This document shows positions 7,915 to 27,659 of a DNA stretch of 64,000 nucleotides, in pieces; position 1 is the first letter of the stretch; each line of letters opens with the position of its first letter. The position numbers were made by a program, and so were the translations under genes. The stretch comes from Spirochaetia bacterium. GTDB taxonomy: Bacteria > Spirochaetota > Spirochaetia > DSM-2461. Under the pieces are notes generated by a model. The model saw only the letters and a program-made list of their open reading frames with translations. It made no database searches and was not told the DNA's origin. The stretch covers positions 2,080,001 through 2,144,000 of the forward strand of contig CAXXIA010000002.1 of the NCBI GenBank assembly GCA_963666985.2. Direction: 5' to 3'.

Positions 7915-8899
7915 TCATGATTCTTCCAGAATACATTCCACCAAAGCTGCCGCGCCGATTAATCCGGAATCCTGGGAGAAGGCCGCCGGAACGATCCTCA
8001 TCGGTTTAACAATCATGTTTTTTACCCTTGCGGTATAATGCTTTTGGATAAGGTTCATATAGGAATCCCCTAAATTCATCAGTCCGCCCCCAAGAATGAC
8101 CATCTCCGGATTGAAAATCTGAAACATGTTGTAAACGAGTAATCCGACGTAAAAAGCCGAATGTTCCATGACAGCCCCGGCAACGGGGTCTCCATTATTG
8201 ATCAGTTCCTCCAGCAAGCGGCCGTCCAACTGCCTGCCTGCGGTGCGGTCGGGGAATTCTTCTGAAAAACGAACGGATAAAAGGTGACGCTGCTCATCAT
8301 ATTGCCGATTCATGCAGACTGTGGCCGCTTCACTCATAACGCATCCGTAGTTGCCGCAAGTGCATTGAATCCGAGAGTGTGGATTTACGATTGTGTGCCC
8401 AACCTCTCCCGCTGTTCCTGAATCGCCATGAACCAGTTTGCCGCCGATAATGATACCGGCACCGATTCCTGTGCTTACGGTAATGAAGAGCATATCGGAG
8501 ACTCCCTTGCCTGCTCCGAAGCGATGTTCTCCGCAGGCCTGGGCATTGGCGTCGTTATCGACGTAAACAGGAATGTTGAAGTGTTTTTGAAGTTCTTCTC
8601 GAATTGAAAACCCCTCGTAGCATTGAAAATTACTGGTAGTGATACAAGTGCCTTCGGGATAACGGAGATGGCCGGCAAATCCGACGCCCAAACCAATAAT
8701 ATCCGTTTCCGATATGTTGTTTTTTTTGCCAGAGTTTTTTGGTGGTTGACGCAATAAGTTCGATGGTTTCTTCCTCGCAGCAGCCGACATGTTCATAGAG
8801 AACTATTTTGTCGAGGAGATTTCCGTCTTGTGGATGTATCAGTCCGAGAGCAAGTTTTGTACCCCCGATATCAACGGCTGCCAACAGCTTTTTATCCAT
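7915..8899 (-). pseudogene. ROK-family sugar kinase split by a +1 frameshift in an A8 tract
   Basis: N-terminal ORF 8630-8899 has VDIGGTK; ORF 7915-8796 has NDANA, STGIGAG, EVGH and CTCGNYGC; removing one T from the T8 run 8720-8727 fuses them. Confidence 0.8.
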
Positions 8900-8909
8900 A
8901 GTTAGAATC

Positions 8910-11312
8910 CTAAACCGATAGATTCAATTCCGTTCTGGCTATTATATCATCCTGGGTATCCGGCGACAAATTGGTAAAAAATGCCGAGTATCCGGCAACC
9001 CGTACGATGAGATCCCGATGGGATTCCGGATCCGATTGAGCGGCCAACAGAGTTTCCCTGTCAACGATGTTGTACTGGATATGCCATCCCTTTAAACCGT
9101 CAAAGAACGTATGGAGCAGTGATGCCAGAAGTTGGCGCTGATGAGGATTCTGAAGCATCTGGGGCGACATCTTCTGATTCAGCAACACACCTCCGGTGAT
9201 GTCTTCGGTAGGCAGTTTTGAGATGGATTTCATAACCGCCGTGGGGCCCAGTTTATCGGCCCCGCCGCTTGGGGAAGCGCCTTCGGCAAGGGGTTTACCG
9301 GATTTTCTTCCGTCGGGAGTCGCCGGCACCACGGCGCCGGCCGGAACATTGCCTGAAATACTTGACGTACCGGCGAAGTATCGGCAGCCGACGGCACCGC
9401 TTCCTTCCCTGATGGTTCGATAGTTCTTAATCTCTTCTATATAAGGAGCGTAAGCCCGAACAATCAGCTTATCGACATAGTCGTCATCGTTGCCGTATTT
9501 GGGCGCATGATTCATCAGCATCTGCCTTACCTTCTCTCCCTGTGGAGTGGAAAAGTCGGATTCAAGAGCTTCCAGCAACTGATCAACAGATATTCGTTGT
9601 TCCTCAAAAATGAGTTTCTTAATAGCCGCCAGAGAATCCGCAAGGTTGGCGATGCCCACCTGAAGACCTGAAACGAAATCATATTTACAGCCGCCTTCAT
9701 GAATCGTCATGCCCCGCTCCAGACAGTTATCGGTAAAGGCCGAGCAGAGAATATCCGGAGCTTCATCCCTCAGGACTATATCGATAGCCGAATCAATGGC
9801 AATTCCCGCCCCGGCATAAAAGCGTACTTGTTCATCCCAAGCTTCCATCAATTCATCAAAGGAACAGAAGTTCCGCAAATTCTTTTTGCTCGGATGAAAC
9901 GTTTTGCCGCTGGGTTTGTCCTCACCTCCGTAAAGGACGGCCATAAAGACTCTCATGAAGTTGAGAAAGTGTTTTCCCGTACAGCGGTAACCCCAAAGTC
10001 CGGGAATGGCAACTTCTATGCATCCGATGGCCGAATAGTCCCAGGCATCATCGGGATCAATTCCAAGTTTTCCCAGAGCCGGAAGAACCACCGAATCATT
10101 ATTAAACGCGGGCATTCCGAATCCCAGTCTGATAACTTCGATGCATTCGGAGAGAAACTCTTTGTTGATTCCGGGATGAAACCGCACGGAAAGATTGGGC
10201 TGGGTGAGCCGAGCGGCTCCTACCGATCTCAGGATAAGGAAGCTCATATCATTCACGCCGTCTTTATAATCCCGGGTTTGTCCGCCGATTGTAACATTCT
10301 GATAAAGAGGTCCGCCGGCGGAGAATCGTGTGTGAGACCAAGAACGGATTTTCTTAATGGAAACCATTTTTAGCCACATATTGGTGAGTGCTTCCATGGC
10401 CCAATTCTCGTCAAAAGTCCCTTTACTGCGGTCGGCTTCCAGAAAAGGCTGTAGGTATTGATCCAATCGTCCCATCGACAGGGAGTGTCCGTTGCTTTCT
10501 ATTTGAAGAACAACCTGGACGAACCAGCAAAGCTGCAGCGCCTGTTTGAAATTGACCGGTGGTTGTGTAATTAGGTGACGGCAGTTTGAGGTAATGGACC
10601 GCAGTTCTTCACGGCGTTTTTCGTCCGTGCATAAGTCGGCTTGAATCTGCGCCAAGTCGGCGAATCGGTTAATATAAATTTGAAAAGCTTCAATACCGAG
10701 AGCAATGGCTCTGTAGAAATGATACTTTTTTATTTCCGCTTCGTTAGTCATTCTCTTGCATTCTTCCTGCCGACCCAGAGTTTCATCCAGATAACTTTGC
10801 AATCCCCTGTTCAGCAGCTTGCGGAAATGAATGGCGATATGAGCGTCTCCTGAAGTGAGATTTCCTTCAGCCCTGATTATCTGAGCGCTGTGGATTTCCC
10901 GGAGTCTGTCGCTCATCATGGAACGGCCCTTATCAAGAGTCGTTTTTCCGTTCCACCATGTGCAGAGTTCCAGTAATTCTTTCTTGGTCTTATCATCCGG
11001 AAAGTAAGCATCTCCCGGGCGTTTTTCGAATTCATCAATTTCTTTTACAATCCATTCGGTCGCGTATTCCGGGAAAATGGGAGCGGCATAGATTGCGCTG
11101 GAATGATTTCCGACGATGATGTCTTCCGGCTCAATAACGAGAGTCATGTTCGTCAGTGTTTCTTTTAAGGCCAGGGCTCGTTTTACCACTATGGGCAGAC
11201 TGGGATTTGTCCTATAGATTTCAGTATAGTATCTGGCACGTTCGAGACAGATTGTCGGCTTTGTGGAAAGGATTCGGTTCCGATAGTCGTTCATTCTTTG
11301 TGACAGTTTCAT
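8910..11312 (-). CDS. ybiW: Glycyl-radical enzyme, YbiW/PflF-like
   Basis: RVAGYS Gly-radical loop, GCIE Cys loop, WGYRCTG and SAGGPLYQNVTIGG resembling E. coli YbiW; start ATG 11312 with AGGAGG RBS (11319-11324). Confidence 0.85.
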   Translation of the reverse strand: MKLSQRMNDYRNRILSTKPTICLERARYYTEIYRTNPSLPIVVKRALALKETLTNMTLVIEPEDIIVGNHSSAIYAAPIFPEYATEWIVKEIDEFEKRPGDAYFPDDKTKKELLELCTWWNGKTTLDKGRSMMSDRLREIHSAQIIRAEGNLTSGDAHIAIHFRKLLNRGLQSYLDETLGRQEECKRMTNEAEIKKYHFYRAIALGIEAFQIYINRFADLAQIQADLCTDEKRREELRSITSNCRHLITQPPVNFKQALQLCWFVQVVLQIESNGHSLSMGRLDQYLQPFLEADRSKGTFDENWAMEALTNMWLKMVSIKKIRSWSHTRFSAGGPLYQNVTIGGQTRDYKDGVNDMSFLILRSVGAARLTQPNLSVRFHPGINKEFLSECIEVIRLGFGMPAFNNDSVVLPALGKLGIDPDDAWDYSAIGCIEVAIPGLWGYRCTGKHFLNFMRVFMAVLYGGEDKPSGKTFHPSKKNLRNFCSFDELMEAWDEQVRFYAGAGIAIDSAIDIVLRDEAPDILCSAFTDNCLERGMTIHEGGCKYDFVSGLQVGIANLADSLAAIKKLIFEEQRISVDQLLEALESDFSTPQGEKVRQMLMNHAPKYGNDDDYVDKLIVRAYAPYIEEIKNYRTIREGSGAVGCRYFAGTSSISGNVPAGAVVPATPDGRKSGKPLAEGASPSGGADKLGPTAVMKSISKLPTEDITGGVLLNQKMSPQMLQNPHQRQLLASLLHTFFDGLKGWHIQYNIVDRETLLAAQSDPESHRDLIVRVAGYSAFFTNLSPDTQDDIIARTELNLSV

Positions 11313-11314: not shown

Positions 11315-12208
11315 TCAGCCTCCTATGCTTGCTGTGATTCCTTGTTCTTCCGCATATTCTCGGTATGGAATCAGAATCTCCGGATTCATCATGGTCAGAG
11401 GGAGGTTGTACTCCCGCCCAAGCATGGTGCTTTTTGATGCGCCCAGTGAGTGATAAGGCAGAAGATCTATTCGGGTAATACCCCATTCGGCCGCTCTTCG
11501 AATAATGGACTTAAGGCTTTTGTCGTCATTATTAAACCCATATATCACCGGAATCCGGGCTCGCAGCGGAACTTTTGACTTAAGGATTTTTAGAAAATTA
11601 CTTTCAACCAGCGACAAATCGCCTCCTGTGTACCGGCGGAATATTTCGGGATCGGTGTGTTTGAGATCACAAAGAAATTCATCAATAACGGGCAGAACGG
11701 TTTCAAGGTTGGTTTGCTGTACATGGAGGCAGGATTCAACCGCACACCGAATCCCTTCGTTTCTGAGGATCTGAGCTGTTTCGGCCAGAAAGTCCGCCTG
11801 CAGCAGCGGTTCTCCGCCGGAGAATGTAACACCGCCGCCCGAGGGGCCATAAAATACGGCATCCTTTCTGACAACAGCGGCGATTTCCGATGGAGAGTAG
11901 AAATGCCCTTTAATGTTTAAGGCTTTTGTTGGACAAAAAAACGCCCTTTCATCACATAATACCTCTCGTGAAGAGAATACAAGCTCTCCGGAAACCTCGG
12001 ACATCGGACCATTTTCAATCGAAAGACAGTCCCGACAGCCTATACAGCGTGATTTCTGATAGAGAAATTCCGGTTTCCGGAGCATCCCTTCCGGATTGGC
12101 GCACCACGGACAGAAAAGTGGACAGCCTTTTAAGAACACGACAGTTCTCAGGCCCTCTCCGTCATGTATGGAAAATCTTTGGATATCAAATACTAATCCG
12201 GTAGTCAT
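11315..12208 (-). CDS. Glycyl-radical enzyme activating protein (radical SAM)
   Basis: IQRFSIHDGEGLRTVVFLKGCPLFCPWCANPE, GGVTFSGGEP, LLPYH; start ATG 12208. Confidence 0.92.
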   Translation of the reverse strand: MTTGLVFDIQRFSIHDGEGLRTVVFLKGCPLFCPWCANPEGMLRKPEFLYQKSRCIGCRDCLSIENGPMSEVSGELVFSSREVLCDERAFFCPTKALNIKGHFYSPSEIAAVVRKDAVFYGPSGGGVTFSGGEPLLQADFLAETAQILRNEGIRCAVESCLHVQQTNLETVLPVIDEFLCDLKHTDPEIFRRYTGGDLSLVESNFLKILKSKVPLRARIPVIYGFNNDDKSLKSIIRRAAEWGITRIDLLPYHSLGASKSTMLGREYNLPLTMMNPEILIPYREYAEEQGITASIGG

Positions 12209-12275
12209 GACGGTATGAATATATACTTTCCAACGAAAGTATACCAGCTTTCTATCGAAGGTTATAAGAGTTTCA

Positions 12276-12314: not shown

Positions 12315-13070
12315 ATGACCAACTTCAATCAGCGTCAAAACGACATCATCAAGATTTTAGGCAGTCGGAAGCAGGTTTCCGTGAAGGAATTGTCGGAGGA
12401 ATTCACAGTTTCTTCGGTTACTATTCGTACGGATCTGGGGATTTTGGAAGAACAGGGACTGGTTATCAGAACTCATGGAGGCGTGGAACTGCCGTCATCC
12501 GATAATCTTTCACGCCGTTTGGCCCAAAATTATGCCCAGAAAAGTTCCATTGCCGAAGCGGCCTTGCGGTTTGTCAGTTCCGGAGACTCAATTCTTTTGG
12601 AATCCGGCTCCTGTGTAGCGCTTATGGCTCGGCTTCTCGGTGGAAAGAGGCGACTGACCATTACAACCAACAATGCTTTCGTTGCCCGGCAGATACCGAA
12701 ATCCCAAGACCTGAAGGTTGTTCTCATAGGCGGTGTTTTTCAACAGGAAAGTGAAACAATGGTGGGCGGGATGGTTAAGGAATACCTAAATTATTTTAAC
12801 TTTGATAAGGTTTTCATGGGAGTGGATGGAATCGTGCCTGAATACGGTGTTATGTGCCGTGATATAGAACGGGCGGAAGTCATGGCCGAATTTGTCGATC
12901 GGGCCGGAGAAGTGATTCTGCTTACCGATTCAACCAAATTCGGCCGAATGGGCCTTAAAACATTCAGCCCCCTGGAAAAAATCAGTCGGATTGTTACCGA
13001 CAGCGGTATTTCCGATGAGGCAAAGGAAACAATCACGAAAGCAGGAGTGGAATTGCTTATCGCAGGCTGA
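12315..13070 (+). CDS. DeoR/GlpR family transcriptional regulator
   Basis: VSSVTIRTDL..LE..G.VIRTHGG HTH plus DeoR sensor domain (DSTKFG). Confidence 0.93.
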   Translation: MTNFNQRQNDIIKILGSRKQVSVKELSEEFTVSSVTIRTDLGILEEQGLVIRTHGGVELPSSDNLSRRLAQNYAQKSSIAEAALRFVSSGDSILLESGSCVALMARLLGGKRRLTITTNNAFVARQIPKSQDLKVVLIGGVFQQESETMVGGMVKEYLNYFNFDKVFMGVDGIVPEYGVMCRDIERAEVMAEFVDRAGEVILLTDSTKFGRMGLKTFSPLEKISRIVTDSGISDEAKETITKAGVELLIAG

Positions 13071-13090: not shown

Positions 13091-14062
13091 CTATACGGCT
13101 TCCCGTTTTCTTTTTCTACTGTAACTGTCAAGGCAGAGAATCGTTACAACGACGACTCCCCGTATAACTTCCTGAGCATAGGGACTTACTCCCAGCATGT
13201 TCATGGAGTTCTCCATGACTCCAAAAACAAGGTATCCAACCAGGGCCAGGGGTGCACCGCCAACCCCGCCCGCCAGAGATGTGCCGCCGACAACGACCGC
13301 ACTAATAACGACAAGAGGAATCCTATCACCGTATATTGAGGATCCGGTATTCAATGTAGAGGACAGCAGGACTCCGGAAAACGCCGCCATCGCTCCGCAT
13401 ATGACATAGGTGGCAGCCTGAATCTTGCGGACGCTGATTCCGGAATATTCTGCAACCTCATAATCGCCGCCGATTGCATAAATATTTCGACCGAACTGTG
13501 TGTAGCGCAGCAGAATATGCACCAAAGCAAAGATGATAAGCATGATGACAATCAGATTGGGAATAACTCCGAAAAGCATACCATTGCCGATCATCATGAA
13601 TTTTACATTGCTCGGTGAAACAGGATGAGCATCGGTCAGCTGCTGGGCAACCCCTGTTAATACCAGCCCCATTCCAAGCGTTATAATGAAGGGAGCACAT
13701 TTCTGATAAACCACCAGAAAGCCGTTAATCAATCCGATAAAAGCTCCGACAAGAACCGCACAGATAATTGAAAGCCATATCGGCAGTCCGGCATTCATAC
13801 ACATGATGGCGATAATACCGCCGAGACAGAGTGTTCCTCCAATGGAGAGATCGATTCCTTCGCCGATTATAACCAGAGTTATACCGAAGGCAAGAACAAT
13901 GTAAATTGAAGCGGAGTTCAGCAAATCAAGAAGGTTGTAACTGGTAAAGAAATTTGTCGGGAAAAAAATCATAAAGAATAGAATGGCGATTATTGCCAGT
14001 ACTGCTTTTTGCTTTGTTATGAGCTTTATGATATTTCCGCTTTTTGCCTGATTGTTCATCAC
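13091..14062 (-). CDS. Sugar ABC transporter permease (RbsC-like)
   Basis: GIDLSIG, FGRNIYAIGG..AEYSGI, VVVGGTSLAGG. Confidence 0.92.
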   Translation of the reverse strand: MMNNQAKSGNIIKLITKQKAVLAIIAILFFMIFFPTNFFTSYNLLDLLNSASIYIVLAFGITLVIIGEGIDLSIGGTLCLGGIIAIMCMNAGLPIWLSIICAVLVGAFIGLINGFLVVYQKCAPFIITLGMGLVLTGVAQQLTDAHPVSPSNVKFMMIGNGMLFGVIPNLIVIMLIIFALVHILLRYTQFGRNIYAIGGDYEVAEYSGISVRKIQAATYVICGAMAAFSGVLLSSTLNTGSSIYGDRIPLVVISAVVVGGTSLAGGVGGAPLALVGYLVFGVMENSMNMLGVSPYAQEVIRGVVVVTILCLDSYSRKRKREAV

Positions 14063-14073
14063 TGTTACCTTTT

Positions 14074-15081
14074 TTAGCGTTGTCTTTTTGCGTCTAACCA
14101 GATTGCAGAGACCAGAATTAGTCCTCTCATAATATTTTGCATAAAAACATCAATTCCAAGCATGTTCATGCAGTTGCCGAGGAGGATAACCAGCAACGTC
14201 CCGATAACCGTTCGAATAACGCTGCCCTTGCCGCCAAGCAATGATGTACCGCCTACAACAACCGCCAGAATTGCTTGTGTTTCGTATCCTTTACCCAGTG
14301 TCGGTGATGCTTGAGTTACTCGTGAAAACAGAATTATACCGCTGAGTCCGGCCATAAAACCGTTTATGGTAAACATACAGATAATGCCTTTAGTTATTGA
14401 GATACCGGAAAGTCTTGCTGCGGTTTTATTTCCGCCTATAAGGTTTATTGTACGTCCCAGATAGGTTTGGCTCTGAAATATATAAAGGATGGTTACGATA
14501 AAAAGGAAGATTAGAAACGATACGGAGAAAATGCCGACAGTTCCCGAACCGATAACCGTAAACAGGGAGTAATCCGCTTCCATATAAGTCAGGTAATGAG
14601 TGACTCCGCCGGTATAAAGCATCGCCAGACCACCGAAAACAACCATTGTCCCATAGGTAATAAAAAGAGCTTCCGCCTGAGTCGTTGCTCCGCTTCCCAA
14701 TATGAGCAGGCTGTTGATAAATCCGCAAAGTGCTCCGGCAATTAATCCCGCAATAAGCGCCGTAACCATGCCATAAGGTTCGATCATTGAATGGGTTATA
14801 ACAACAACCAGAGGAATGGTCCCTGAAACCGAAAGATCGATAAAACCTCCGATGATGACAAAGGTCATTCCGAGGCAAACCATAATGAGCGGTCCGAATT
14901 GCCGCATGATATTCGTCAGATTTGCAATGGTGGCAAATTTCGGTTCAATTATTATGGTGATGATCGAGAGGATGGCAATAGCGAACAAAACCATATATTC
15001 CTTGGAAAATTCAACGATTGCACTTCGATCAATTTTAATTCGTTTTAAGAGAGGCTCTTTCAATGACAATTGCTCGGACAT
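14074..15081 (-). CDS. Sugar ABC transporter permease (RbsC-like)
   Basis: FIDLSV, GGNKTAARLSGI, AVVVGGTSLLGGKG. Confidence 0.92.
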   Translation of the reverse strand: MSEQLSLKEPLLKRIKIDRSAIVEFSKEYMVLFAIAILSIITIIIEPKFATIANLTNIMRQFGPLIMVCLGMTFVIIGGFIDLSVSGTIPLVVVITHSMIEPYGMVTALIAGLIAGALCGFINSLLILGSGATTQAEALFITYGTMVVFGGLAMLYTGGVTHYLTYMEADYSLFTVIGSGTVGIFSVSFLIFLFIVTILYIFQSQTYLGRTINLIGGNKTAARLSGISITKGIICMFTINGFMAGLSGIILFSRVTQASPTLGKGYETQAILAVVVGGTSLLGGKGSVIRTVIGTLLVILLGNCMNMLGIDVFMQNIMRGLILVSAIWLDAKRQR

Positions 15082-15095
15082 GCCTCAACTCCTTG

Positions 15096-16583
15096 TTAAA
15101 TGCACTTTTCCATTATTTCCTGAGAGGTCGCTTTCTCAGGATCGAATTCTCCTGTAATTTCACCATCACAAATGGTGAGAACTCTGTTGCTCATATGAAG
15201 AACTTCCGGAAGCTCGGAAGAAATCATAATTATTGAACCCCCATTTTCGACGATTTCCTTCATTAACAGATAAATTTCATATTTTGCACCAACGTCAATT
15301 CCGCGTGTGGGTTCGTCCAGGATTAGAATTTTGGGCTTCAGTTCCATCCAGCGGCCGACGACGCACTTTTGCTGATTTCCGCCGGACAAATTGACAACTC
15401 TGGTTTTTGTCGAAGGTGTCTTAATGCCAAGGCTTTTAATTTGCCTTTCGGCCATGATTCTTTCTTCGGTTTTTTTGAGAAATCCGGCTTTGTTTTTCAG
15501 TCTGTCGAGGCTGGCCATAGATATATTTGATTCCACGGAAAAGGGTAGAATTAATCCCTGCAGCTTTCTGTCTTCCGGTACAAAACTAATACCGGCCGCT
15601 TTTGCATCTATGGGATTTTTTATTTTCACGGGGCTGTTGTTGATGAGGATTTCATGATCATAAGTTTTGTCGGCGCCGTATACGGCACGGACAATCTCGG
15701 TTCTTCCCGCTCCAACCAAGCCGACAAGTCCCAGTATTTCACCTTTTTTCAGTTTGAAGGATATATTTTTCAGTTTCTTGGTATTTATAGAACGTACTTC
15801 AAGCAATGTATCACCGGTACATCTCGGACGTTCGGGAAATTCATTCTCAATTGATCGTCCAACCATTTTGGTGATCATTTCACTTCTGGTTATTTCCGAA
15901 ATCGGTTTTGTATCAATAACTTTTCCGTCCCTCATTACGGTGACGATGTCACAGAAATCGAATATTTCATCGAGTTTATGACTGATATAAATTATAGAAA
16001 TACCTCGTTCTTTCAGCTGATGAATAATTTTTGCCAGATGCTGCATTTCCTCTTCGGTGAGGCTGCTGCTCGGTTCATCCATTATGATCAGTTTGGAATC
16101 AAAGGATAATGACTTTGCGATTTCAACCATTTGTTTTTCGGAAACGCTTAAGTCTCCAACCAAGGTATTTGTATCAATTGTGGAGCCGATGCTGTCGAGC
16201 AGGATTCTTGCCTTGGCATGTGTTCCGCGCATACCTCCAAGTTCTCGAAATCGGCCAAGAAAGACATTCTCTCCAACCGTCATCGTATTGATAATGTTCA
16301 GTTCCTGATAAATGATGCTAAGTCCCATTTCCATGGACTTATGCGGAGTTGTACTTTGAATTTCCTTACCATCAAAAGTAATAACACCGGAATCTTTTGT
16401 ATAAACTCCGGAGAGGATTTTCATTAGTGTTGATTTACCCGCTCCGTTTTCACCGACAATTCCATGAACGACTCCCCGGCCGACTTCGATTGAAACCTCA
16501 TCCAGAGCTTTTACTCCCGGAAAAGATTTACTTACTTTTTCTACGGTAAGAATGGCTCTCGGCATATTGTTATCCAAAGTCAT
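15096..16583 (-). CDS. Sugar ABC transporter ATP-binding protein (RbsA/MglA type, two NBDs)
   Basis: GENGAGKST, IIMDEP, LSGGNQQK, ILDEPTRGIDVGAK. Confidence 0.95.
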   Translation of the reverse strand: MTLDNNMPRAILTVEKVSKSFPGVKALDEVSIEVGRGVVHGIVGENGAGKSTLMKILSGVYTKDSGVITFDGKEIQSTTPHKSMEMGLSIIYQELNIINTMTVGENVFLGRFRELGGMRGTHAKARILLDSIGSTIDTNTLVGDLSVSEKQMVEIAKSLSFDSKLIIMDEPSSSLTEEEMQHLAKIIHQLKERGISIIYISHKLDEIFDFCDIVTVMRDGKVIDTKPISEITRSEMITKMVGRSIENEFPERPRCTGDTLLEVRSINTKKLKNISFKLKKGEILGLVGLVGAGRTEIVRAVYGADKTYDHEILINNSPVKIKNPIDAKAAGISFVPEDRKLQGLILPFSVESNISMASLDRLKNKAGFLKKTEERIMAERQIKSLGIKTPSTKTRVVNLSGGNQQKCVVGRWMELKPKILILDEPTRGIDVGAKYEIYLLMKEIVENGGSIIMISSELPEVLHMSNRVLTICDGEITGEFDPEKATSQEIMEKCI

Positions 16584-16649
16584 TACCTCCTCAATTACTA
16601 TACACGAATTCTGTATTGGCAGACTTTCTAAAAAAATCGTCAGTTTTAA

Positions 16650-16683
16650 AGCTGGGATGTTTCATTGTTGAAACATCCCAGCT
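16650..16683 (-). terminator. Perfect 15-bp hairpin between binding-protein and ATPase genes (terminator or mRNA stabiliser)
   Basis: AGCTGGGATGTTTCA-ttgt-TGAAACATCCCAGCT. Confidence 0.65.
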
Positions 16684-16803
16684 CGATCATATTGAATTTT
16701 GTGTCAATGCCGACTGTTCGCTTGAATAGAACTCATGTCGGAAAGCCTGCTTAAGGCAAACCGGGGAATAATCTTCCATACCTTAATTTATAGAAGACTT
16801 TTT

Positions 16804-17763: not shown

Positions 17764-17796
17764 AGTTACCTCCATTTTGATACTATGATGTGTATC

Positions 17797-18285: not shown

Positions 18286-18338
18286 AATATGCCCCGCTGA
18301 TAATTTTCATTCGATAATAACAAACTTTCATTTGAGGT

Positions 18339-18367
18339 ATGATACTTTGACATATGGCTGTTGTCAA
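18339..18367 (-). promoter_or_regulatory. Putative sigma70 promoter of UPF0303-ABC operon
   Basis: Minus strand TTGACA (18367-18362), 17 nt, TATCAT (18344-18339). Confidence 0.6.
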
Positions 18368-18818: not shown

Positions 18819-18832
18819 CTTTCATATGAAAG
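18819..18832. promoter_or_regulatory. Palindromic operator candidate CTTTCATATGAAAG
   Basis: Perfect palindrome downstream of TTGACA-17-TAGTAT (18770-18798); same CTTTC-N4-GAAAG at 12226-12239. Confidence 0.55.
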
Positions 18833-19757: not shown

Positions 19758-20630
19758 ATGGAGAAAATACTGGTTACAGGCGGTACCGGTTTCATCGGCA
19801 GCCGAATTTATCATACGTATCACGGCCAATACGACATATTGGCGCTTTCATCCAAGGATATGAATATTCTGGATAAATCCGCTGTGGATGAAACGATTTC
19901 CACCTTTAATCCGGACTATGTTATTCACTGCGCAGCCGTTGCCGTTACCGAGTATTGCAATAAAAATCCCGAACACTGCCAAGCGGTCAATGTTGAAGGT
20001 ACGGTTAATATTGCCGAGTCCTGTTTGCATAATAAATGCCGTCTTGTTTTTTTGAGTACCGAACAGGTTTTTAACGGAAATACGAATCCCGGACCATATT
20101 CCGAAACCGACGAACCGCATCCCGATACGGTCTACGGACAAAACAAGCTTGATGCTGAAAACAAAATACAGGAGATTTGCGGCGACAGTCTGATTTTAAG
20201 ATTAACTTGGTTCTTTGGTGTACCGCAAAAATTTCAGCCGGCAAAGGGGACCATTCTCTGGGATACGATAGAAAAAATACTTTCCGGAAAACCGTTCAAT
20301 GTTGCTGTGAATGAATTTCGCGGCCTGAGTTATGTCGATGAATTAATGGAACTAATTCCTACTTTACTGGATCTTCCTCCGGGAATTTACCATACCGGCT
20401 CCCGGAATCCCATGAACCGATATGAATCGGTCTGCCATATATTCAAAGAGCTGGGATTGGAACAGAGAATAGAGGACCTGGTTCGTGCCGATTACAACAA
20501 GTATTCACAGAGTCCCCGGGATATTAGGCTCAATACGGGTAAGCTGCGGGATGCGGGAATCGTGTTTTCCGAAAGTCCTGACGCCATCAGCCGGTGTATC
20601 AGGGAATACGGTATCAGCTGTTCGGGATGA
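19758..20630 (+). CDS. RmlD-like NAD(P)-dependent sugar reductase (extended SDR)
   Basis: TGGTGFIG, VIHCAA, STEQVF, YGQNK. Confidence 0.8.
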   Translation: MEKILVTGGTGFIGSRIYHTYHGQYDILALSSKDMNILDKSAVDETISTFNPDYVIHCAAVAVTEYCNKNPEHCQAVNVEGTVNIAESCLHNKCRLVFLSTEQVFNGNTNPGPYSETDEPHPDTVYGQNKLDAENKIQEICGDSLILRLTWFFGVPQKFQPAKGTILWDTIEKILSGKPFNVAVNEFRGLSYVDELMELIPTLLDLPPGIYHTGSRNPMNRYESVCHIFKELGLEQRIEDLVRADYNKYSQSPRDIRLNTGKLRDAGIVFSESPDAISRCIREYGISCSG

Positions 20631-21369
20631 CGACTTCAATATTGCGGCTTGTGAAGTAATTATAATATTCTTCAGGGATGTTCCTGTCCGTTATCAGATA
20701 CTGGATATCCTCACCGCTGCAGTATTTAGACAAGTTGATTTTCCCGAATTTTGAGGAATCCGTCAGGATATATGTTTGCGGACTTCTCTGAATAATTGTC
20801 GAATTGATATCGGCCCTCATCATGTTTTTTCCGGTGAAGCCTGTTTCTACGGTAAAACCGTCTACACCGATAAAGGCCTTACTGAAATTGAGAAAATTCA
20901 GGCATTCTTTCACCAAATTACCAACCAGGCATTCACTTTCATGCTGATAGATACCGCCAAGAAGAATGACTCGTCCTTCTGCGTTCTTGCCGATCTGTCT
21001 TGCAATAAAGGCATTTGATGTAATAATCGTCGTGGATTTACGTTCTTTCACAACTTCGAGAGCAAAAAGAGCATTTATCGAACCCGATTCAACATAAATG
21101 GTCTCGCCTTCATTCACAAATTGAATTGCCGCTCTGGCGATCAGCAGTTTCTCTTCATAATTAATTCCCATTCGATGGGAGATATCATCGGTTTCATCCA
21201 GGATGGCTCCTCCATGAACCCTTCTGAGGAATCCGTTCTTCTCGAGAGCCGTCAAATCTTGTCTTATCGTTGCTTGTGAAACAGTGAGTTTTTCAGCAAG
21301 CTCGTTTACCGCAACTTGTTTTCCATTGGACAGTATATTCAGAATCTGTCTGTGTCTTTTATTCATCAT
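20614..21369 (-). CDS. DeoR/GlpR family transcriptional regulator
   Basis: VSQATIRQDL..LE..G.LRRVHGGA; DSSKFG; paralogous to 12315-13070. Confidence 0.93.
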   Translation of the reverse strand: MMNKRHRQILNILSNGKQVAVNELAEKLTVSQATIRQDLTALEKNGFLRRVHGGAILDETDDISHRMGINYEEKLLIARAAIQFVNEGETIYVESGSINALFALEVVKERKSTTIITSNAFIARQIGKNAEGRVILLGGIYQHESECLVGNLVKECLNFLNFSKAFIGVDGFTVETGFTGKNMMRADINSTIIQRSPQTYILTDSSKFGKINLSKYCSGEDIQYLITDRNIPEEYYNYFTSRNIEVVIPNS

Positions 21370-21671: not shown

Positions 21672-24044
21672 ATGCGTGATTACGCCGAACAGATTGCCGC
21701 ACTGGATCGCTTTCATAGAATTGAAAGGCTTAAAAAGGACATGCTGGGAGAAACCCGCTATGTTTCAATGGATCAAGCCCGAATTATCACCCGCATTTAC
21801 AAGGAAACCGAGGGTGAACCGACGAATATACGCCGAGCACGGTCATTGGCGGCCGCTCTGGAGGAGATCCCGATCAGAATCGATTCCGGTGAGCTTATTG
21901 TCGGAAACCGAACCCCAGGAATCCGCAATGGAGTCGTTTTTCCCGAGGGAGGGCTTTCCTGGGTGGATAAGGAGTTGGAAACCCTCAGTACCCGCCCTCA
22001 GGATCGATTTGAGGTTCACCCTGAAGACATTCCCTATTTTCGGGAGGAACTCTATCCATATTGGAAAGGAAAAACCCTTGAAGACGTGGTGAATGCGGAA
22101 CTCGGAGAAGATGTCAAATCCATGGCTCGGGTGGTGAAGATCAACCAAAAAGACCATGCCCAGGGACATATTTGTCCGGATACGCCGAAATGGCTGCGCC
22201 TCGGTCCCAAAGGTTTGATCGAAGAAGCCCAAAAGGCTTCCGGAAGAACCGGTGATTCGAACAGATTTCTGGAAGGAGTCATCATCTCCCTGGAAGGCGC
22301 CCGAACTTTTATGCTTCGGTATGCCGATCTGGCCGAAGATCTGGCCGCCGCCGCCGTTCCGGTTCAAGCTTCCGAATTGAGCGAAATCGCACGAATCTGC
22401 CGTAAGCTGAAGGATTTCCCGCCGTCATCCTTTCATGAAGCGCTTCAGTCTCTATGGTTCCTCTATGTCATTCTGCATATGGAATCCAACGCATCTTCTT
22501 TTTCTCCCGGAAGGATGGATCAGTATTTGATGCCTTTCCTTCGGCAAGATCTGGGTTCCGGTCTGCTGGATATGGCGGGAGCCCTGGAGCTGGTGGAAGC
22601 CCTTTGGCTGAAGTTCAACCAGATTGTTTATCTTCGGAATTCCACAGGAGCAAAATACTTCGCCGGATTTCCCATCGGTTTCAATGTGGCTCTTGGAGGT
22701 CAGGATGAAGCGGGTAATGATGCCTCCAATGAGTTATCTTTTCTGTTTTTAAAAGCCCAGGAACATTTGGGCCTTCCCCAACCGAACCTGTCGGCCCGGA
22801 TTTATAAAGGCAGTCCCGAAGATTTGCTGGATACCTGTTCCCGGGTTATCGGCCTTGGAAGCGGCATGCCTCAGATATTTAACGATGAAGCGGTCATCCC
22901 CGCTCTTCGGGGAGTGGGAATCTCCGAAAAGGATTCCAGAAATTACGCCGTTGTCGGCTGTGTTGAGCTTACCACCCAAGGGAACAATTTGGGCTGGAGC
23001 GACGCGGCGATGTTCAACTTGGTGAAAGTCCTGGAACTGACGCTGAACGACGGCGTGGATCTTCTCGACGGAGCCGGGAGCGGTTTGAATCTGGGTACTC
23101 TGGAAGATTTCGACACTTTTGAAAAACTTGAAAAAGCATATGAAACGCAGGTGGATTATTTTATCGACCGAATGATTCCCGCCTGTCATATCGTGGATCG
23201 CATTCATGGTGAAATTGTTCCGTCTCCTTTCCTCTCGTCGGTTATCAACAACTGTATTGCGAAAGGCATCGATGTTACCGACGGAGGTGCCCACTATAAT
23301 CTGTCGGGAATACAGGCTATTCAGCCGGCCAATATCGCCGATAGCCTGGCGGCGCTGAAAACCCTGGTATACGACCAAAAAACAGTTTCCAGGTCCGAAC
23401 TTCTTCAAGCCCTCCGTTCCAATTTTGAGAACAGCGAGATTCTCCGTCAGCGGCTTCTGAACAAAGCACCCAAGTACGGTAACGATATCGAATGGGTTGA
23501 TGAATTGGGCCACAAGTGGATAAAGCACTTCGCGGATCGGTTAAAGGAATTCACCAATCGCCGGGGCGGTCCGTATCACACCGGGCTCTATACCGTTTCC
23601 GCCCATGTTCCCATGGGGCAGAATGTCGGTGCTACCCCAGACGGGCGAAAATCCCGGGAGCCGCTGGCAGACGGAGGGATGTCCGCTGTTTACGGCCGGG
23701 ATACCGCCGGCCCCACCGCGCTGCTTAAATCGGTTTCCAGGGTGGATTCCTCCCTAGGCTCCAACGGAACCCTGCTGAATATGAAGTTTTCTCCGCAGCT
23801 CTTCGGAACCGAAGAAGGGATCAAGAAATTTTCGGCCATGCTGCGGACCTTCGTCAGACTGAAGATCAGCCATGTTCAGTTTAATGTGCTTACCGAACAG
23901 GATCTTCGGGCGGCCATAGAGAATCCCGAGAAATTCCGCAGTCTGACAGTTCGAGTCGCCGGTTATACGGCCTATTTTACCGAGCTTGCCGGTGATCTTC
24001 AGGAAGAGATTATCGCCAGGACTTCGTACCTTGATGCCCTATGA
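21672..24044 (+). CDS. pflD: Glycyl-radical enzyme, PflD-like
   Basis: RVAGYT, GCVE, ESNASSFSPGR, YFAGFP, SDAAMFNL resembling E. coli PflD; GGGAG RBS. Confidence 0.8.
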   Translation: MRDYAEQIAALDRFHRIERLKKDMLGETRYVSMDQARIITRIYKETEGEPTNIRRARSLAAALEEIPIRIDSGELIVGNRTPGIRNGVVFPEGGLSWVDKELETLSTRPQDRFEVHPEDIPYFREELYPYWKGKTLEDVVNAELGEDVKSMARVVKINQKDHAQGHICPDTPKWLRLGPKGLIEEAQKASGRTGDSNRFLEGVIISLEGARTFMLRYADLAEDLAAAAVPVQASELSEIARICRKLKDFPPSSFHEALQSLWFLYVILHMESNASSFSPGRMDQYLMPFLRQDLGSGLLDMAGALELVEALWLKFNQIVYLRNSTGAKYFAGFPIGFNVALGGQDEAGNDASNELSFLFLKAQEHLGLPQPNLSARIYKGSPEDLLDTCSRVIGLGSGMPQIFNDEAVIPALRGVGISEKDSRNYAVVGCVELTTQGNNLGWSDAAMFNLVKVLELTLNDGVDLLDGAGSGLNLGTLEDFDTFEKLEKAYETQVDYFIDRMIPACHIVDRIHGEIVPSPFLSSVINNCIAKGIDVTDGGAHYNLSGIQAIQPANIADSLAALKTLVYDQKTVSRSELLQALRSNFENSEILRQRLLNKAPKYGNDIEWVDELGHKWIKHFADRLKEFTNRRGGPYHTGLYTVSAHVPMGQNVGATPDGRKSREPLADGGMSAVYGRDTAGPTALLKSVSRVDSSLGSNGTLLNMKFSPQLFGTEEGIKKFSAMLRTFVRLKISHVQFNVLTEQDLRAAIENPEKFRSLTVRVAGYTAYFTELAGDLQEEIIARTSYLDAL

Positions 24045-24949
24045 TTTTCGGCACCATCTTCGACCTGAAGCGTTTCGCCCTTCATGACGGATCGGGTTTG
24101 CGTTCCACGCTGTTTCTGAAAGGATGTCCTCTTACCTGTCCGTGGTGTCAGAATCCTGAAGGGGTAAGTCCCCGGATTCATCTGCGGTGGATCGCGTCAA
24201 AATGCATTCGGTGCGGGCTCTGTGTCGACTCTTGTAACGACGGGACGCTTTCCAGGGCTGAAAACGGCGATATTCATATTCATCATTCCGTGAGCGGCGA
24301 TTTGAAAAAATATGTGGATATTTGCCCTACCGGAGCCCTTTGCTTCGACGGCCGCAGAGTTTCCGCCGACGAGATAGCCGGAGAACTTCTCTCCGATCGT
24401 GTTTTCTTCGAATCTTCCGGCGGCGGTATCACTCTCAGCGGCGGTGAACCGCTCGCGCAGCCGGCGTTCTCCGCGGAGGTTTTGCGGCTTTGTCGGGAAG
24501 CCGGTATCTCAACGGCCCTGGAAACCACTCTCGGCGTCCCTATGAACGCCGTAAAGACTGTTTCGCCTTATACCGACCGCTTCCTGGCGGATATGAAGAT
24601 AGCCGATCCTGAGGACCATCAACGAATTCTGAATGCTGATGTTACGACCGTACGGGCTAATCTGGAATTTTTATTGAAACACGGGGCTCATGTTCTGGTT
24701 CGCATAGCCCTTATTCCGGGTTATACGGCCCGGGAAGAAAACCTAAGGGGTTTAGGGAAGTATATCTCAACCCTCCGTCCCCAGCCGCCGGTGGAACTGC
24801 TGAACTTCAACCCTTTGGCGGAAAACAAGTACAGGCTGCTGGGTCGGCACTGGCCCATTCCTAAAGAGACGCCCCGATTTTCTCCGAAAGAGCTGAATCA
24901 TTTTGCCGATGTGCTTTCGAGTGTCGGCGTGAAAAGGATGGAATCATGA
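24041..24949 (+). CDS. Glycyl-radical enzyme activating protein with ferredoxin insert
   Basis: HDGSGLRSTLFLKGCPLTCPWCQNPE, CIRCGLCVDSC, GGITLSGGEP; ATGA overlap with GRE. Confidence 0.92.
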   Translation: MIFGTIFDLKRFALHDGSGLRSTLFLKGCPLTCPWCQNPEGVSPRIHLRWIASKCIRCGLCVDSCNDGTLSRAENGDIHIHHSVSGDLKKYVDICPTGALCFDGRRVSADEIAGELLSDRVFFESSGGGITLSGGEPLAQPAFSAEVLRLCREAGISTALETTLGVPMNAVKTVSPYTDRFLADMKIADPEDHQRILNADVTTVRANLEFLLKHGAHVLVRIALIPGYTAREENLRGLGKYISTLRPQPPVELLNFNPLAENKYRLLGRHWPIPKETPRFSPKELNHFADVLSSVGVKRMES

Positions 24950-26841
24950 AAAACGACATCTCCGCCGGTGCCGCTCTCGATGATATGATCGCCGAGGCGG
25001 AACTGGGACATTCGGTGTATATCACCAGGGTACACAATCTTTTCGAGAACAATCCCCATGGCATAGATTTAAAGCTTGTCTTGGATTTTGCCGGAGGGAT
25101 GGCATCCAGAAGTTTTCCGGTTCGTCTCCCTCTTCCTTCCGAGCTCTCACACAATCAGGCCGAACTGGTTCATGAATATCTGTGTGCCGTGATATACAAC
25201 CTGATTTCCACCTACGGCGGAAGCACGCTGACCTTTTTCAGACCCCTTGGGATATCGGGTCTTGATGAACTCCTCGATTCGGCTGCCGCCGAGTTTTATT
25301 CCGAGAAATCCAAAAAAGAGAGACAGGGTTACGGCCGCTGCCTTAATGTCGCCGAACGAACCGCCGATGCCCTTGACGGTTTGGCGCCGGGTACTGTGCG
25401 ATTTGTTTTTCAGAAGAAAGACGCCGACGGAATATCGAATTCACATCTGATTCAGATGGCCGTTGATACTCCGGAGACGGCCGGAGATGCCGGTTCGGTT
25501 ATCGACAGACTGAAGGATCTGCCGGAGCGTTTGTCGGGAAAAACGATTCTGGGATTGGACATCGGCGGAAGCGATATCAAAGCGGTTCTCGCCATGGACG
25601 GCCGAATTATCGCGTATAAAGAATATGATTGGTTTCCCGCGCGGTTCACCGTCAGCAGGCAATTGGCGGATCCCGTATTGCTTATTGCCCGATGGGCCCG
25701 AATCCGGGCCGCCGTTGAGAAAACCGGCCTGCTTCAGGCGAATGAATTCATTGAATTAAGAGATCTTCTGGATGAAGTTTCATCGGCAGAGGTTTCGGAT
25801 GAAAAGCTGGAAATGGCGGTTCTTGAAGCCGAAAAAAGATTTTGCGAATCCGCGAACGCACCCTTGCCGGGTCTGGATGCCGTCGGCCTCTGTTTTCCCG
25901 ATGTTGTCGTGAAAAATAAAATCGTCGGCGGCGAGGTTTATAAGACTCGGGGAATCCGAAATAATCCAGCCATCGAATACGAAAAGGATTTTCGTACCTT
26001 AACCGATTTGGATCTGCGTCTTGCCGAATTCTGTATAAAAACTCCTGACGGCGCCGTGGTTCGAAATACCAATGACGGCCCCATGGCGTCATTCACTTCC
26101 GCCGTAGAGAGAGCCTTTTCCGGCGAACAGGAGGTCAATAAGGGTGTTTTCGCCCATACTTTGGGCACGGAGCTTGGAACCGGCTGGCTGACTGCGGCGG
26201 CCGAGCTGCCGACAATTCCTCTTGAGGTTTATAATTACGTTATTGATCTGGGTTCAAGAAAAGAACGGCGATATCAATCCGACGATCCCCGAAGCCTCAA
26301 TAATTTCAACACGGGAATACCGGGAACTCTCCAGAAATACACCAGCCAGAGCGGCGTCTTCCGACTGGCCGTGAAATATTTTCCGGAACAGCGTCCCGAT
26401 TTGTATGCCGAACTCTACAATAAAGGATTTATTGAAAATAAAGACAACGGTGAAATCCTGATTTGTCAGAACCCCCGGGACATGCGGAAACCCCTGCTTG
26501 AGCATCTTATGGCGCTTCCTGAGAGAGAAGGGGAAGATGGTGTCTGCGGCGAAATATTTCGGGAAATCGGTGAATATTTGGCCGTAACCTGGGATGAAAC
26601 CAGACGCATTCTCGCTCCCTTGGCCGCTGATCGGGTTCTTTTCGGCCGGCTGGTGAAGAACCCCGTTTGTTTCCGTCTGATGCAGGAAGGGGCGAAGCGT
26701 ATCGCCGGAGATTTGCAGCTGGTTGTTGCCGATGACGAATCGGCCTGGACGCCTTTAATGAGGCAGCTTCGGGATGATGGACGCTATACGGTGGCCCAGT
26801 TCGCTCAGGCGGTGGGAGCGGTTTACTACGCTTTATTGTAA
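24946..26841 (+). CDS. Large ROK/ASKHA-like protein of unknown function
   Basis: ILGLDIGGSDIK, TNDG, TLGTELGTG resembling ROK kinase motifs; ATGA-coupled to activase. Confidence 0.6.
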   Translation: MKNDISAGAALDDMIAEAELGHSVYITRVHNLFENNPHGIDLKLVLDFAGGMASRSFPVRLPLPSELSHNQAELVHEYLCAVIYNLISTYGGSTLTFFRPLGISGLDELLDSAAAEFYSEKSKKERQGYGRCLNVAERTADALDGLAPGTVRFVFQKKDADGISNSHLIQMAVDTPETAGDAGSVIDRLKDLPERLSGKTILGLDIGGSDIKAVLAMDGRIIAYKEYDWFPARFTVSRQLADPVLLIARWARIRAAVEKTGLLQANEFIELRDLLDEVSSAEVSDEKLEMAVLEAEKRFCESANAPLPGLDAVGLCFPDVVVKNKIVGGEVYKTRGIRNNPAIEYEKDFRTLTDLDLRLAEFCIKTPDGAVVRNTNDGPMASFTSAVERAFSGEQEVNKGVFAHTLGTELGTGWLTAAAELPTIPLEVYNYVIDLGSRKERRYQSDDPRSLNNFNTGIPGTLQKYTSQSGVFRLAVKYFPEQRPDLYAELYNKGFIENKDNGEILICQNPRDMRKPLLEHLMALPEREGEDGVCGEIFREIGEYLAVTWDETRRILAPLAADRVLFGRLVKNPVCFRLMQEGAKRIAGDLQLVVADDESAWTPLMRQLRDDGRYTVAQFAQAVGAVYYALL

Positions 26842-26855
26842 TACCTACCGTTTCA

Positions 26856-27659
26856 TTACGGTTTTTTGTATTTGCTCGGGGGAACTCCGAATCGTGCGGT
26901 AAAGCGTCGCGAGAAGTATTTGGGATCGCTGTAACCGATAAAGGATATCACCTGGCCGATATCCATGTCGTGGCGTGCCAGAAGACAGCCGGCCGTTTCC
27001 AATCTTATCGCGTCCAGGTACTTGATCGGTGTTGATCCGGTCCGTTCCTTGAACCGTCTGTCCAGGTAGGAGGTGCTGCAGTTGGCCAGGCGGGCAAGCT
27101 CGTCCACCGTTATCCGGCGGGCAAGGTTTTCATGGAGATAGTGGATAACCCGGCTGATGGGATCTTCAATCTCCCGATGTGAATCCAAAGCCATTTTTAT
27201 ATAATGCAGCAGTGCCTTAACCAGAGAATCAAGGAGCGGATCTTTATGGGAATAACCGGATGCCGCGACGGCATGGATTTCTATAAAGAGCCAGCGAAGC
27301 CTGCTTTCCAGATCCGAAAGGCGATAGATCTGTTTCAACCCCGAAGGGCCGGGAAATTCAATCCCGAGACAGACGATTTCCTGATGCCGAGAAAGATTCA
27401 CCGTCTCCAGATGAAGGAAGTTTTCGGGGTACACGACAAAGTCGAACACCGAGAGAGTCAGGTCGTCCTGTTCTCCGTGAATCCGGGCCCCCCCCTCGAG
27501 GAAGTAGATCAGCTCCATATAGGGGTGCTGATGATGAGTGAGATTCCAAATATCGCTTTTCTCGGTAAATCGTTCGCAGAAAACAAGCTTGGTACCGTTG
27601 AACGATCCGTTTTGAAACGCAGGTACCGACTCTCCCACATTCATACCGGATGATATCAT
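26856..27659 (-). CDS. AraC family regulator with cupin domain
   Basis: HHQHPYMELIY cupin; C-terminal GYSDPKYFSRRF..RFGVPPSKY. Confidence 0.92.
   Translation of the reverse strand: MISSGMNVGESVPAFQNGSFNGTKLVFCERFTEKSDIWNLTHHQHPYMELIYFLEGGARIHGEQDDLTLSVFDFVVYPENFLHLETVNLSRHQEIVCLGIEFPGPSGLKQIYRLSDLESRLRWLFIEIHAVAASGYSHKDPLLDSLVKALLHYIKMALDSHREIEDPISRVIHYLHENLARRITVDELARLANCSTSYLDRRFKERTGSTPIKYLDAIRLETAGCLLARHDMDIGQVISFIGYSDPKYFSRRFTARFGVPPSKYKKP

Follow-up and report, generated by a model that had tools for sequence, protein, structure and literature searches.

A twin glycyl-radical enzyme locus of a Spirochaetia bacterium, predicted to encode a PTS-free, ATP-driven variant of anhydroglycolysis

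We have analysed a stretch of 64,000 nucleotides from a Spirochaetia bacterium (assembly GCA_963666985.2, contig CAXXIA010000002.1; hereafter the window), in which a locus of about 20 kb (7915..27659) encodes two glycyl-radical enzymes (GREs), GRE1 and GRE2. We consider it reasonably probable that this locus encodes an ATP-driven anhydroglycolysis that is free of the phosphotransferase system (PTS) and likely fed by 1,5-anhydrofructose, a breakdown product of starch and glycogen; all its substrates and reactions are those that we infer from the sequence. The reading is built on gene content, on the orthology, folds and conserved residues of the encoded proteins, on a shared palindrome of the YciT type and on synteny.

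In the proposed pathway, an ATP-binding cassette (ABC) importer would take up 1,5-anhydro-sugars, and two reductases would convert 1,5-anhydrofructose into 1,5-anhydromannitol and 1,5-anhydroglucitol. Two kinases of the ROK fold would phosphorylate both compounds at C6, yielding 1,5-anhydromannitol-6-phosphate (AM6P) and 1,5-anhydroglucitol-6-phosphate (AG6P), whose rings would then be opened by the PflD-like and the YbiW-like radical enzyme, respectively, with 1-deoxyfructose-6-phosphate as the common product. The operons of GRE1, the ABC importer and the reductases would be under YciT-like repressors, and GRE2 may be under an AraC protein.

Anhydroglycolysis was reportedly described by Ma and colleagues (JACS 2024) as a route that gut bacteria link to the PTS. 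The E. coli annotation and the accessible text of PMC13450708 and PMC12441222 assign ybiYW-fsaA to AG6P and frwCB-pflDC-frwD/ptsA-fsaB-gldA to AM6P, and the same two sources describe YbiW and PflD as radical C-O lyases/isomerases acting on AG6P and AM6P. The locus analysed here shares with that system a YbiW orthologue, an enzyme of the PflD group, dedicated activases, an AraC neighbour on the PflD side and, for the YbiW branch, a repressor and an operator of the YciT type. It differs in that ABC import and two ATP-dependent kinases stand in place of the PTS, both branches lie in one locus, extra reductases are present, GRE2 forms a separate clade, and neither Fsa nor GldA was found in the genome. 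The locus is probably an anhydroglycolysis variant, one that lacks two defining features of the E. coli system (PTS and Fsa/GldA) and whose GRE2 departs from the PflD equivalog and its motifs. No description of this ABC/kinase twin-GRE arrangement was found in the literature searched, from which subscription journals were mostly absent.

Organization of the locus

The two GRE genes are divergently oriented and carry the motifs GCIE/RVAGYS (GRE1) and GCVE/RVAGYT (GRE2), each with its own activase, just as an earlier note on this DNA had described them, and all the genes listed in that note sit at the positions it gave. Its claim of a ROK/ASKHA-type gene beside each GRE holds in that both neighbours are kinase-like, but it overlooked a frameshift that splits the first of them. 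Between the GREs the note had correctly placed a CUT2 ABC set, an HbpS-like/UPF0303 gene, an RmlD-family oxidoreductase and two DeoR genes; the protein that it called AroE-like belongs to the shikimate dehydrogenase (SDH) family and is nearest to 5-ketofructose reductase (KFR), an identity that it missed. As it had also stated, no PTS gene and no aldolase gene, Fsa included, is seen within the locus. The features are the following.

7915..8899, minus strand: ROK1, a frameshifted ROK-family kinase (PF00480, E 1e-59), predicted 1,5-anhydroglucitol 6-kinase
8910..11312, minus strand: GRE1, YbiW orthologue by tree and similarity (925 bits to structure 8ID7; 53% identity to E. coli YbiW)
11315..12208, minus strand: radical-SAM activase of GRE1 (TIGR02494 above cut-off; 40% to YbiY)
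12226..12261, no strand: palindromic operator CTTTC-N4-GAAAG in the spacer between activase 1 and DeoR1, exact at 12226, with a one-mismatch copy at 12248
12315..13070, plus strand: DeoR1, a YciT-like repressor (best NCBIfam model YciT, below its cut-off; 39% to E. coli YciT)
13091..17775, minus strand: CUT2 monosaccharide ABC importer, with two permeases, ATPase and binding protein, by family profile matches
17797..18285, minus strand: HbpS-like/UPF0303 protein (PF03928 and NF002696, both above cut-off), encoded at the head of the ABC operon
18300..18367, minus strand: promoter-like site (11/12) for the ABC operon and a weak operator-like site downstream, as consensus matches only
18770..18832, plus strand: promoter-like site and exact operator (18819-18832) of the reductase operon, from the promoter scan and the genome-wide matrix score
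18886..19749, plus strand: 5-ketofructose-reductase-like (KFR-like) enzyme of SDH fold (best PDB match 7COK)
19758..20630, plus strand: RmlD-like extended short-chain dehydrogenase/reductase (SDR), below the RmlD cut-off (best PDB match 9GPI), predicted anhydrofructose/anhydroglucitol oxidoreductase
20614..21369, minus strand: DeoR2, a YciT-like repressor and the genome's best homologue of YciT (45% to the E. coli protein)
21672..24044, plus strand: GRE2, set apart as a clade of its own in the PflD group (two PflD structures at 682 and 664 bits; 44% to E. coli PflD)
24041..24949, plus strand: radical-SAM activase of GRE2 (TIGR02494 above cut-off), with stop/start overlaps with both neighbours
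24946..26841, plus strand: X631, an unannotated protein of 631 residues with an N-domain and, from its predicted fold, a ROK-fold kinase domain; predicted 1,5-anhydromannitol 6-kinase
26856..27659, minus strand: AraC-family regulator (family profile match), convergent with the GRE2 operon

Each GRE gene is coupled with its activase and its kinase-like gene through overlapping or nearly touching stops and starts. The leftward unit runs from activase 1 through GRE1 to ROK1, with most likely starts, after correction, at 12208 for activase 1 and 11312 for GRE1, and DeoR1 is divergent from it. The UPF0303-ABC operon (18285-13091) is divergent from the pair of SDH-family and RmlD-family genes (18886-20630), and DeoR2 from the GRE2-activase 2-X631 operon (21672-26841). 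The closest homologues belong to Spirochaetota, which makes a spirochaete the likely host.

A misassembled or chance arrangement was rejected. The locus is real because a single 34-kb contig of an independent, related strain spans 7802-27749 in one piece, with about 95% identity over the whole locus and 890 differing letters, and because the gene set recurs in distant taxa.

Radical enzymes, kinases and reductases

Both GREs show the traits of PFL-like GREs, namely a CxE Cys loop, a Gly loop, the PF02901 and PF01228 domains and an activase of their own, and they score 951 and 813 with TIGR01774 (cut-off 678). They were placed in a FastTree phylogeny of 132 full-length library representatives (of 150 returned) and 23 marker rows, a check that the earlier note had proposed, and neither of them clusters with other GRE classes. 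GRE1 groups with YbiW: E. coli YbiW nests inside the GRE1 clade with a support of 99-100, and the 925 bits of GRE1 to the E. coli structure compare with 573 to the next class. C441, E443, H165, H282, S283, R330, H334, R453 and T455 are conserved in 39/39 orthologues, and Cys441/Glu443 are named as YbiW residues in the accessible text of PMC13450708. GRE1 is thus a YbiW orthologue, predicted to convert AG6P into 1-deoxyfructose-6-phosphate.

GRE2 falls inside the PflD group. It forms with PflD an 18-row group with a support of 100 that holds four of the 132 library representatives and leaves the other 128 outside, and its scores with the two PflD structures exceed the 616 bits to glycerol dehydratase. 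Within the group it constitutes a clade of its own on a long stem (0.51). Six residues, R311, C419, E421, D433, Y617 and H622 in PflD numbering, are conserved in 57/57 proteins of the GRE2 clade. Glycerol/diol dehydratase, CutC, HypD and sulfo-lyase were rejected as identities of GRE2, all of them scoring below their cut-offs and the tree placing GRE2 with PflD.

Other GREs were observed in the course of this work. A third GRE with its own activase (G000:C2:2521004-2534258; L083, L191, L203), about 33% identical to YbiW, PflD, GRE1 and GRE2, lies in a separate, putative GRE sugar locus with DeoR, class II aldolase-family and DeoC/FbaB-family genes within 13 kb. Some twin loci (L028:2951-5329, L148:7428-9764) hold a PflD-related paralogue in which Gln replaces the catalytic Glu of CxE and which adjoins a distant SDH-family gene. 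At L019:3069-5369, directly upstream of a GRE2 module, lies the gene of a very divergent GRE-like protein that has its own activase, a CWE Cys loop and a Gly loop in altered context.

ROK1 matches PF00480 and has the zinc motif, and its reading frame is broken in this assembly by one extra base in an 8-base run (8720-8727), so that the DIGGT motif and the rest of the N-terminal part are read in a different frame. The gene truly starts at 8899. The related strain does not have the extra base; the near-identical run X1 says nothing on the frameshift because its contig ends inside the 8-base run. Either the assembly is in error here or the break is peculiar to the strain.

X631 gave no sequence match in Pfam (PF00480 included), NCBIfam or PDB and lacks the zinc cysteines, and it has 1,154 homologues among 8,000 scored candidates. 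Its Atlas neighbours are hypothetical clusters first and ROK clusters next, at 0.93. In the AF2 model (pLDDT 93.8), residues 197-631 match ROK kinases with a Foldseek E of 5e-11 and a VIA Z of 20.1 (rmsd 2.8, 282 aligned). We therefore regard X631, on its modelled structure, as a ROK-fold kinase visible by fold only. D205, N376-D377 and E427, invariant in 120/120 sequences, are the counterparts of three features of NagK given in the accessible part of PMC10031466: its metal Asp, its Asn-Asp pair and the Glu that binds the sugar. A local hhalign comparison of X631 with ROK1 reached a probability of 51% and an E of 2e-4, and the global mode returned nothing. X631 shares with the ROK kinases (glucokinase 2QM1/3VGK, NanK 2AA4 and NagK) the fold, the phosphate-1 Asp, the catalytic Asn-Asp pair and the Glu for sugar binding; it differs from them in having twice their size, no zinc cysteines, no PF00480 match and an extra N-domain. 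This N-domain (1-165, about 165 residues) folds confidently and has no clear fold match, the best hits being a Foldseek E of 0.15 and a VIA Z of 5.3 (weak, RNase-H-like halves).

Both kinases also lack an acidic residue that known ROK sugar kinases have just after the zinc motif. This position is Glu in three glucokinase/ManNAc-kinase structures; it is Met (28) or Ile (9) in 37/37 ROK1 orthologues, and the aligned column of X631, in a weak profile alignment, is Gln in 120/120. NagK D187, which binds the sugar 1-OH according to the available text of PMC10031466, likely occupies the same position, by a mapping that we infer. The loss of a residue gripping the 1-OH in both kinases would fit sugars without an anomeric hydroxyl, i.e., anhydro-alditols.

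The KFR-like enzyme is closer to the 5-ketofructose reductase 7COK (247 bits) than to the best shikimate dehydrogenase (192). With KFR (7COK/7COL; TM-KFR) it shares the SDH fold, the catalytic Lys and Asp and the D/E-N-P and IPN motifs, which are fixed in 37/37 orthologues. A plain AroE was rejected on account of this best match and of the replacement, in the query and its 37 orthologues, of Ser, Ser and Tyr, which we take to be the carboxylate-binding residues of shikimate dehydrogenase; the AroE model TIGR00507 is passed barely (210 vs 200). The KFR-like enzyme differs from KFR in belonging to GRE loci of anaerobes and in the Arg that follows the nucleotide-binding Asn, which is Ile in 30/37; this Arg presumably has a role in the cofactor preference of KFR, and its change suggests a preference for NAD. 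Chemically, 5-ketofructopyranose has one hydroxyl more than 1,5-anhydrofructose, and fructopyranose is related to its deoxy counterpart 1,5-anhydromannitol in the same way. Because the conversion of 5-ketofructopyranose into fructopyranose affects the same ring position and face as that of anhydrofructose into anhydromannitol, the KFR-like enzyme is predicted, by analogy, to reduce 1,5-anhydrofructose to 1,5-anhydromannitol, the substrate of the PflD branch. The accessible text of PMC7954740 describes an SDH-like KFR that reduces 5-ketofructose to D-fructose, acting at C5 of the fructose skeleton.

A true anhydrofructose reductase (AFR; 301 bits to 2GLX) is encoded upstream of GRE2 in six Chloroflexota loci, none of which has the KFR-like gene, nor do their six genomes have a KFR orthologue. 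According to section 5.1 of PMC12441222, in its accessible text, the Sinorhizobium AFR (2GLX) forms anhydromannitol, and in rhizobia the route then leads aerobically to mannose, with no radical enzyme of the kind proposed here. AFR and the KFR-like enzyme would thus share a predicted reaction on unrelated folds, AFR homologues occupying related GRE2 loci.

A plain RmlD was likewise rejected for the RmlD-like SDR, which scores 138 with TIGR01214 (cut-off 224) and has no rml genes around it in the locus; its best PDB match, 9GPI, is labelled 'putative'. The gene is found in 5/16 loci with GRE1 and in 0/64 loci without it, among loci that, being kin, are not independent. Because of this confinement, we predict that the enzyme serves the glucitol branch.

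Beside ROK1-GRE1, several loci (L130, L131, L133-L135, L139, L146, L150, L160) carry a sub-module of a GMC oxidoreductase, a levoglucosan-dehydrogenase-like Gfo/Idh/MocA enzyme and a ribulose-phosphate-3-epimerase-like gene, which may funnel a C3 epimer or a 3-keto form into the pathway. Genomes with no YbiW match (L011, L070 and the Chloroflexota L058, L064, L066, L068, L069, L075) pair a GMC gene with either AFR or the KFR-like gene, which would suit an oxidation of anhydroglucitol to anhydrofructose and its passage through the PflD branch.

Regulation and distribution

The palindrome CTTTC-N4-GAAAG is exact at 12226 and 18819 and has 13 exact copies in the 4.86-Mb genome. When the whole genome is scored with a matrix derived from 43 sites in related loci, the 18819 and 12226 sites come out on top (25.7 and 22.9; next 19.0). 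This matrix was seeded with the pattern read off this window, and therefore E. coli serves as an independent test. There, exact copies of the motif occur in the spacer of ybiY and fsaA (score 24.4) and upstream of ybiO; the copy at ybiV has one mismatch, and nothing in the pflD cluster scores above 5.7. In the accessible text of PMC8464067, ybiY, fsaA, ybiV and ybiO are YciT ChIP targets, and that of bioRxiv 2025.05.13.653802 reports the repression of ybiYW by YciT. DeoR1 and DeoR2 are the best YciT homologues of our genome. Because the 18819 operator lies about 20 bases after a promoter-like site, the reductase operon likely belongs to the same regulon as YbiW, operator binding being predicted.

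The statistics of these sites are uneven. The strict pattern gave 3 matches at 2 sites against 0.05 expected, a post hoc figure for a pattern read off the same sites, and a loose search with two mismatches was barely above chance (60 vs 46). The promoter scan was modestly above shuffles (28 vs 19), and terminators were at chance level. An AraC-type match occurs in 34/80 related loci, and E. coli pflD also adjoins an AraC gene, yijO.

These related loci come from a GTDB scan in which a relative of X631 is encoded in 273/368 candidate stretches; we retained the best 80, of which many are short contigs. Among the 80 there are 64 with the GRE2 clade, 37 with the KFR-like gene, 37 with the binding protein (whose PDB relatives are distant only, best E 2e-24), 20 with ROK1, 16 with GRE1, 16 with a GMC oxidoreductase, 15 with UPF0303, 6 with AFR, 5 with the RmlD-like gene and 2 with Fsa; a PTS EIIC (FrwC-like) and GldA were each found in 0/80. 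The carriers belong to Spirochaetota, Bacillota, Chloroflexota, Betaproteobacteria and Anaeromyxobacter, i.e., at least four phyla, and the module is patchy among the relatives of this genome (4/41, own genome included).

Whole genomes were searched for 50 loci out of these 80, selected because their contigs are long, with two duplicate handles counted once. A GRE1 orthologue is present in 37/50 and lies within 25 kb of X631 in 29/50. The Propionivibrio locus L011 has these kinase, reductase and ABC genes on the flanks of a canonical PflD, which shares 68% identity with that of E. coli and has all tested pocket motifs; this is the best single argument that X631 would make AM6P. The PTS-independent, two-branch route through ABC import, kinase and GRE that the earlier note had suggested is supported by phylogeny, fold, kinase residues, the shared operator and the synteny survey, in which the gene set recurs in distant taxa.

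The exit step, alternative explanations and neighbouring genes

Several observations weigh against the anhydrofructose-fed pathway as proposed. ROK1 is frameshifted in this assembly. GRE2 scores below the cut-off of the PflD equivalog NF007437 (785 vs 1109), and the active-site comparison, which agrees with YbiW for GRE1, reveals in GRE2 the changes K152H, L267F, L431W, H432S and G526Q in 57/57 orthologues; K152, L431, H432 and G526 are retained in all sampled canonical PflD sequences (E. coli, Bacillota, Propionivibrio). A KFR-resembling SDH-like protein of Clostridium showed no activity with 5-ketofructose, and the main text of the same source (PMC7954740) makes no mention of anhydrofructose. 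No KFR orthologue was found in 18/52 module genomes. The complementarity of AFR and the KFR-like gene (p 0.028) comes close to a single event, the six AFR loci being one lineage, and genome G086 has both enzymes, so that the replacement by AFR is suggestive only of the role of the KFR-like enzyme. No operator was found before GRE2 in this window. Finally, the Fsa step has no gene here, and an FSA-type aldolase occurs in only 8/52 module genomes.

This last point was pursued at genome level. In this genome (93% complete, 3 contigs) no TAL/FSA-family (PF00923) gene was found, and tblastn with FsaA, FsaB and GldA gave no match; the earlier note, which had suggested this search, had warned that the downstream chemistry might differ, and its warning is strengthened. 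Some PF00923 member is present in 36/50 module genomes. Short Fsa/TalC-like proteins occur in 13/52, eight of them with Gln59/Tyr131, which we take to be the FSA signature; these counts cover short family members only, in genomes that are incomplete metagenome assemblies. Both in-cluster Fsa genes carry the signature, which supports 1-deoxyfructose-6-phosphate as the product in those lineages. Because 44/52 module genomes show no FSA-type aldolase, another step likely removes this compound.

ORF clustering over the 80 loci and 40 extended regions revealed no conserved linked aldolase, transketolase or GldA that could replace it; a TPP-dependent E1-like gene was found in 2/80 loci. The top 25 operator sites of the genome point to no unlinked exit gene: the genome has 2 class II fructose-bisphosphate (FBP) aldolases and 6 DeoC/FbaB-family, 6 FucA-family and 5 transketolase-family matches, none at a top operator site. 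One unlinked FrwC-like PTS is encoded elsewhere in the genome. As far as the assembly shows, Fsa is not the exit in this genome; an unlinked aldolase or transketolase is the most likely candidate. A search of the whole of genome G000 gave no transaldolase-family gene at all, and its pentose phosphate pathway likely runs without transaldolase for this reason.

The KFR-like enzyme itself could provide the exit. In this unlikely alternative, the radical core is the same and the KFR-like enzyme acts downstream, in place of Fsa, either oxidising 1-deoxyfructose-6-phosphate at C5 to DKFP (6-deoxy-5-ketofructose-1-phosphate) or shifting the ketone to give 6-deoxyfructose-1-phosphate, so that an ordinary FBP aldolase would release dihydroxyacetone phosphate (DHAP) and methylglyoxal (or lactaldehyde). 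KFR does act at C5 of the fructose skeleton (PMC7954740, accessible text), and the formation of DKFP from DHAP and methylglyoxal by FBP aldolase in Methanocaldococcus appears in the available text of PMC4162585. The KFR-like gene is, moreover, the commonest accessory enzyme (34/52) of genomes that mostly lack Fsa, both loci with an in-cluster Fsa are without it, and the FBP aldolases and DeoC/FbaB-family proteins are at hand in our genome. However, FSA is not significantly enriched in KFR-less genomes (4/6 vs 14/46, p 0.17), the pocket motifs match those of KFR, an enzyme of neutral sugars, with an acidic residue and no new basic residue identified, and the true AFR replaces the KFR-like enzyme in Chloroflexota, five of which are also without an FSA-type aldolase. 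A general form of this idea, in which most module anaerobes carry out a complete fermentation of anhydrofructose without Fsa, a new family of ROK-fold kinases and a distinct radical enzyme of the PflD group yield a 1-deoxyketose phosphate, and the KFR-like enzyme moves or adds a ketone for cleavage by FBP aldolase, we regard as rather unlikely. If true, it would provide a new exit route and link bacterial catabolism to DKFP, otherwise known from archaeal aromatic biosynthesis.

The long stem of GRE2 and its five fixed changes in the pocket region, including the loss of a Lys and a His kept by all sampled PflD, raise the question of its substrate. It could be another 1,5-anhydrohexitol epimer or an unphosphorylated ring, X631 then phosphorylating the opened product, and the large inserts and extra domain of X631, together with the C3-type enzymes of some relatives (levoglucosan-dehydrogenase-like, GMC and ketose-phosphate 3-epimerase-like), would agree with this. 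We think it improbable too, given that X631 also serves a canonical PflD in L011, that the six PflD residues listed above are unchanged in 57/57, and that FSA-signature aldolases lie inside two GRE2 loci.

That two independent modules, YbiW/ABC/reductase under DeoR and GRE2/kinase under AraC, were merely adjoined by recombination is very unlikely. In its favour, the GC content steps from about 41-49% to 52% at GRE2, the nearest relatives differ (L001-L003 and L005 for GRE2/X631; L004, L023 and L027 for GRE1/ABC/KFR), the operator is missing before GRE2 here and GRE2/X631 has no GRE1 match in 13/50 genomes, but 29/50 genomes hold both GREs within 25 kb, with a variety of gene orders, GRE2 has the operator in front of it in L004, L008, L023 and L061, and the KFR-like gene usually comes directly after X631.

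The core radical chemistry of the PTS-free anhydroglycolysis that we favour was already known, which limits the surprise. If the reading is true, anhydroglycolysis would reach environmental anaerobes of at least four phyla by way of ABC import and ATP-dependent kinases and would start one step earlier, at 1,5-anhydrofructose. It would also offer testable functions for more than 1,150 'hypothetical' proteins of the X631 family, for a clade mis-annotated as shikimate dehydrogenase, for the RmlD-like clade and for an orphan binding protein.

A flavodiiron (FprA-type) gene (27771-29003, minus strand) adjoins the locus and could shield the radical enzymes against NO or oxygen; its homologue was found in one related region only. 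Elsewhere in the window, the product of 41294-43291 (plus strand), from its translation, is presumably a chemoreceptor-like protein with a C-terminal hemerythrin-like segment, a possible oxygen sensor. A low-GC stretch begins at a gene pair (50456-52470, minus strand) that we take, from the translations, to be an IS21-like transposase and its ATPase. The ORFs of 58812-63724 (minus strand), likewise from their translations, read like what we presume to be a type I-C CRISPR-Cas set (cas5, cas8c, cas7, cas4, cas1).

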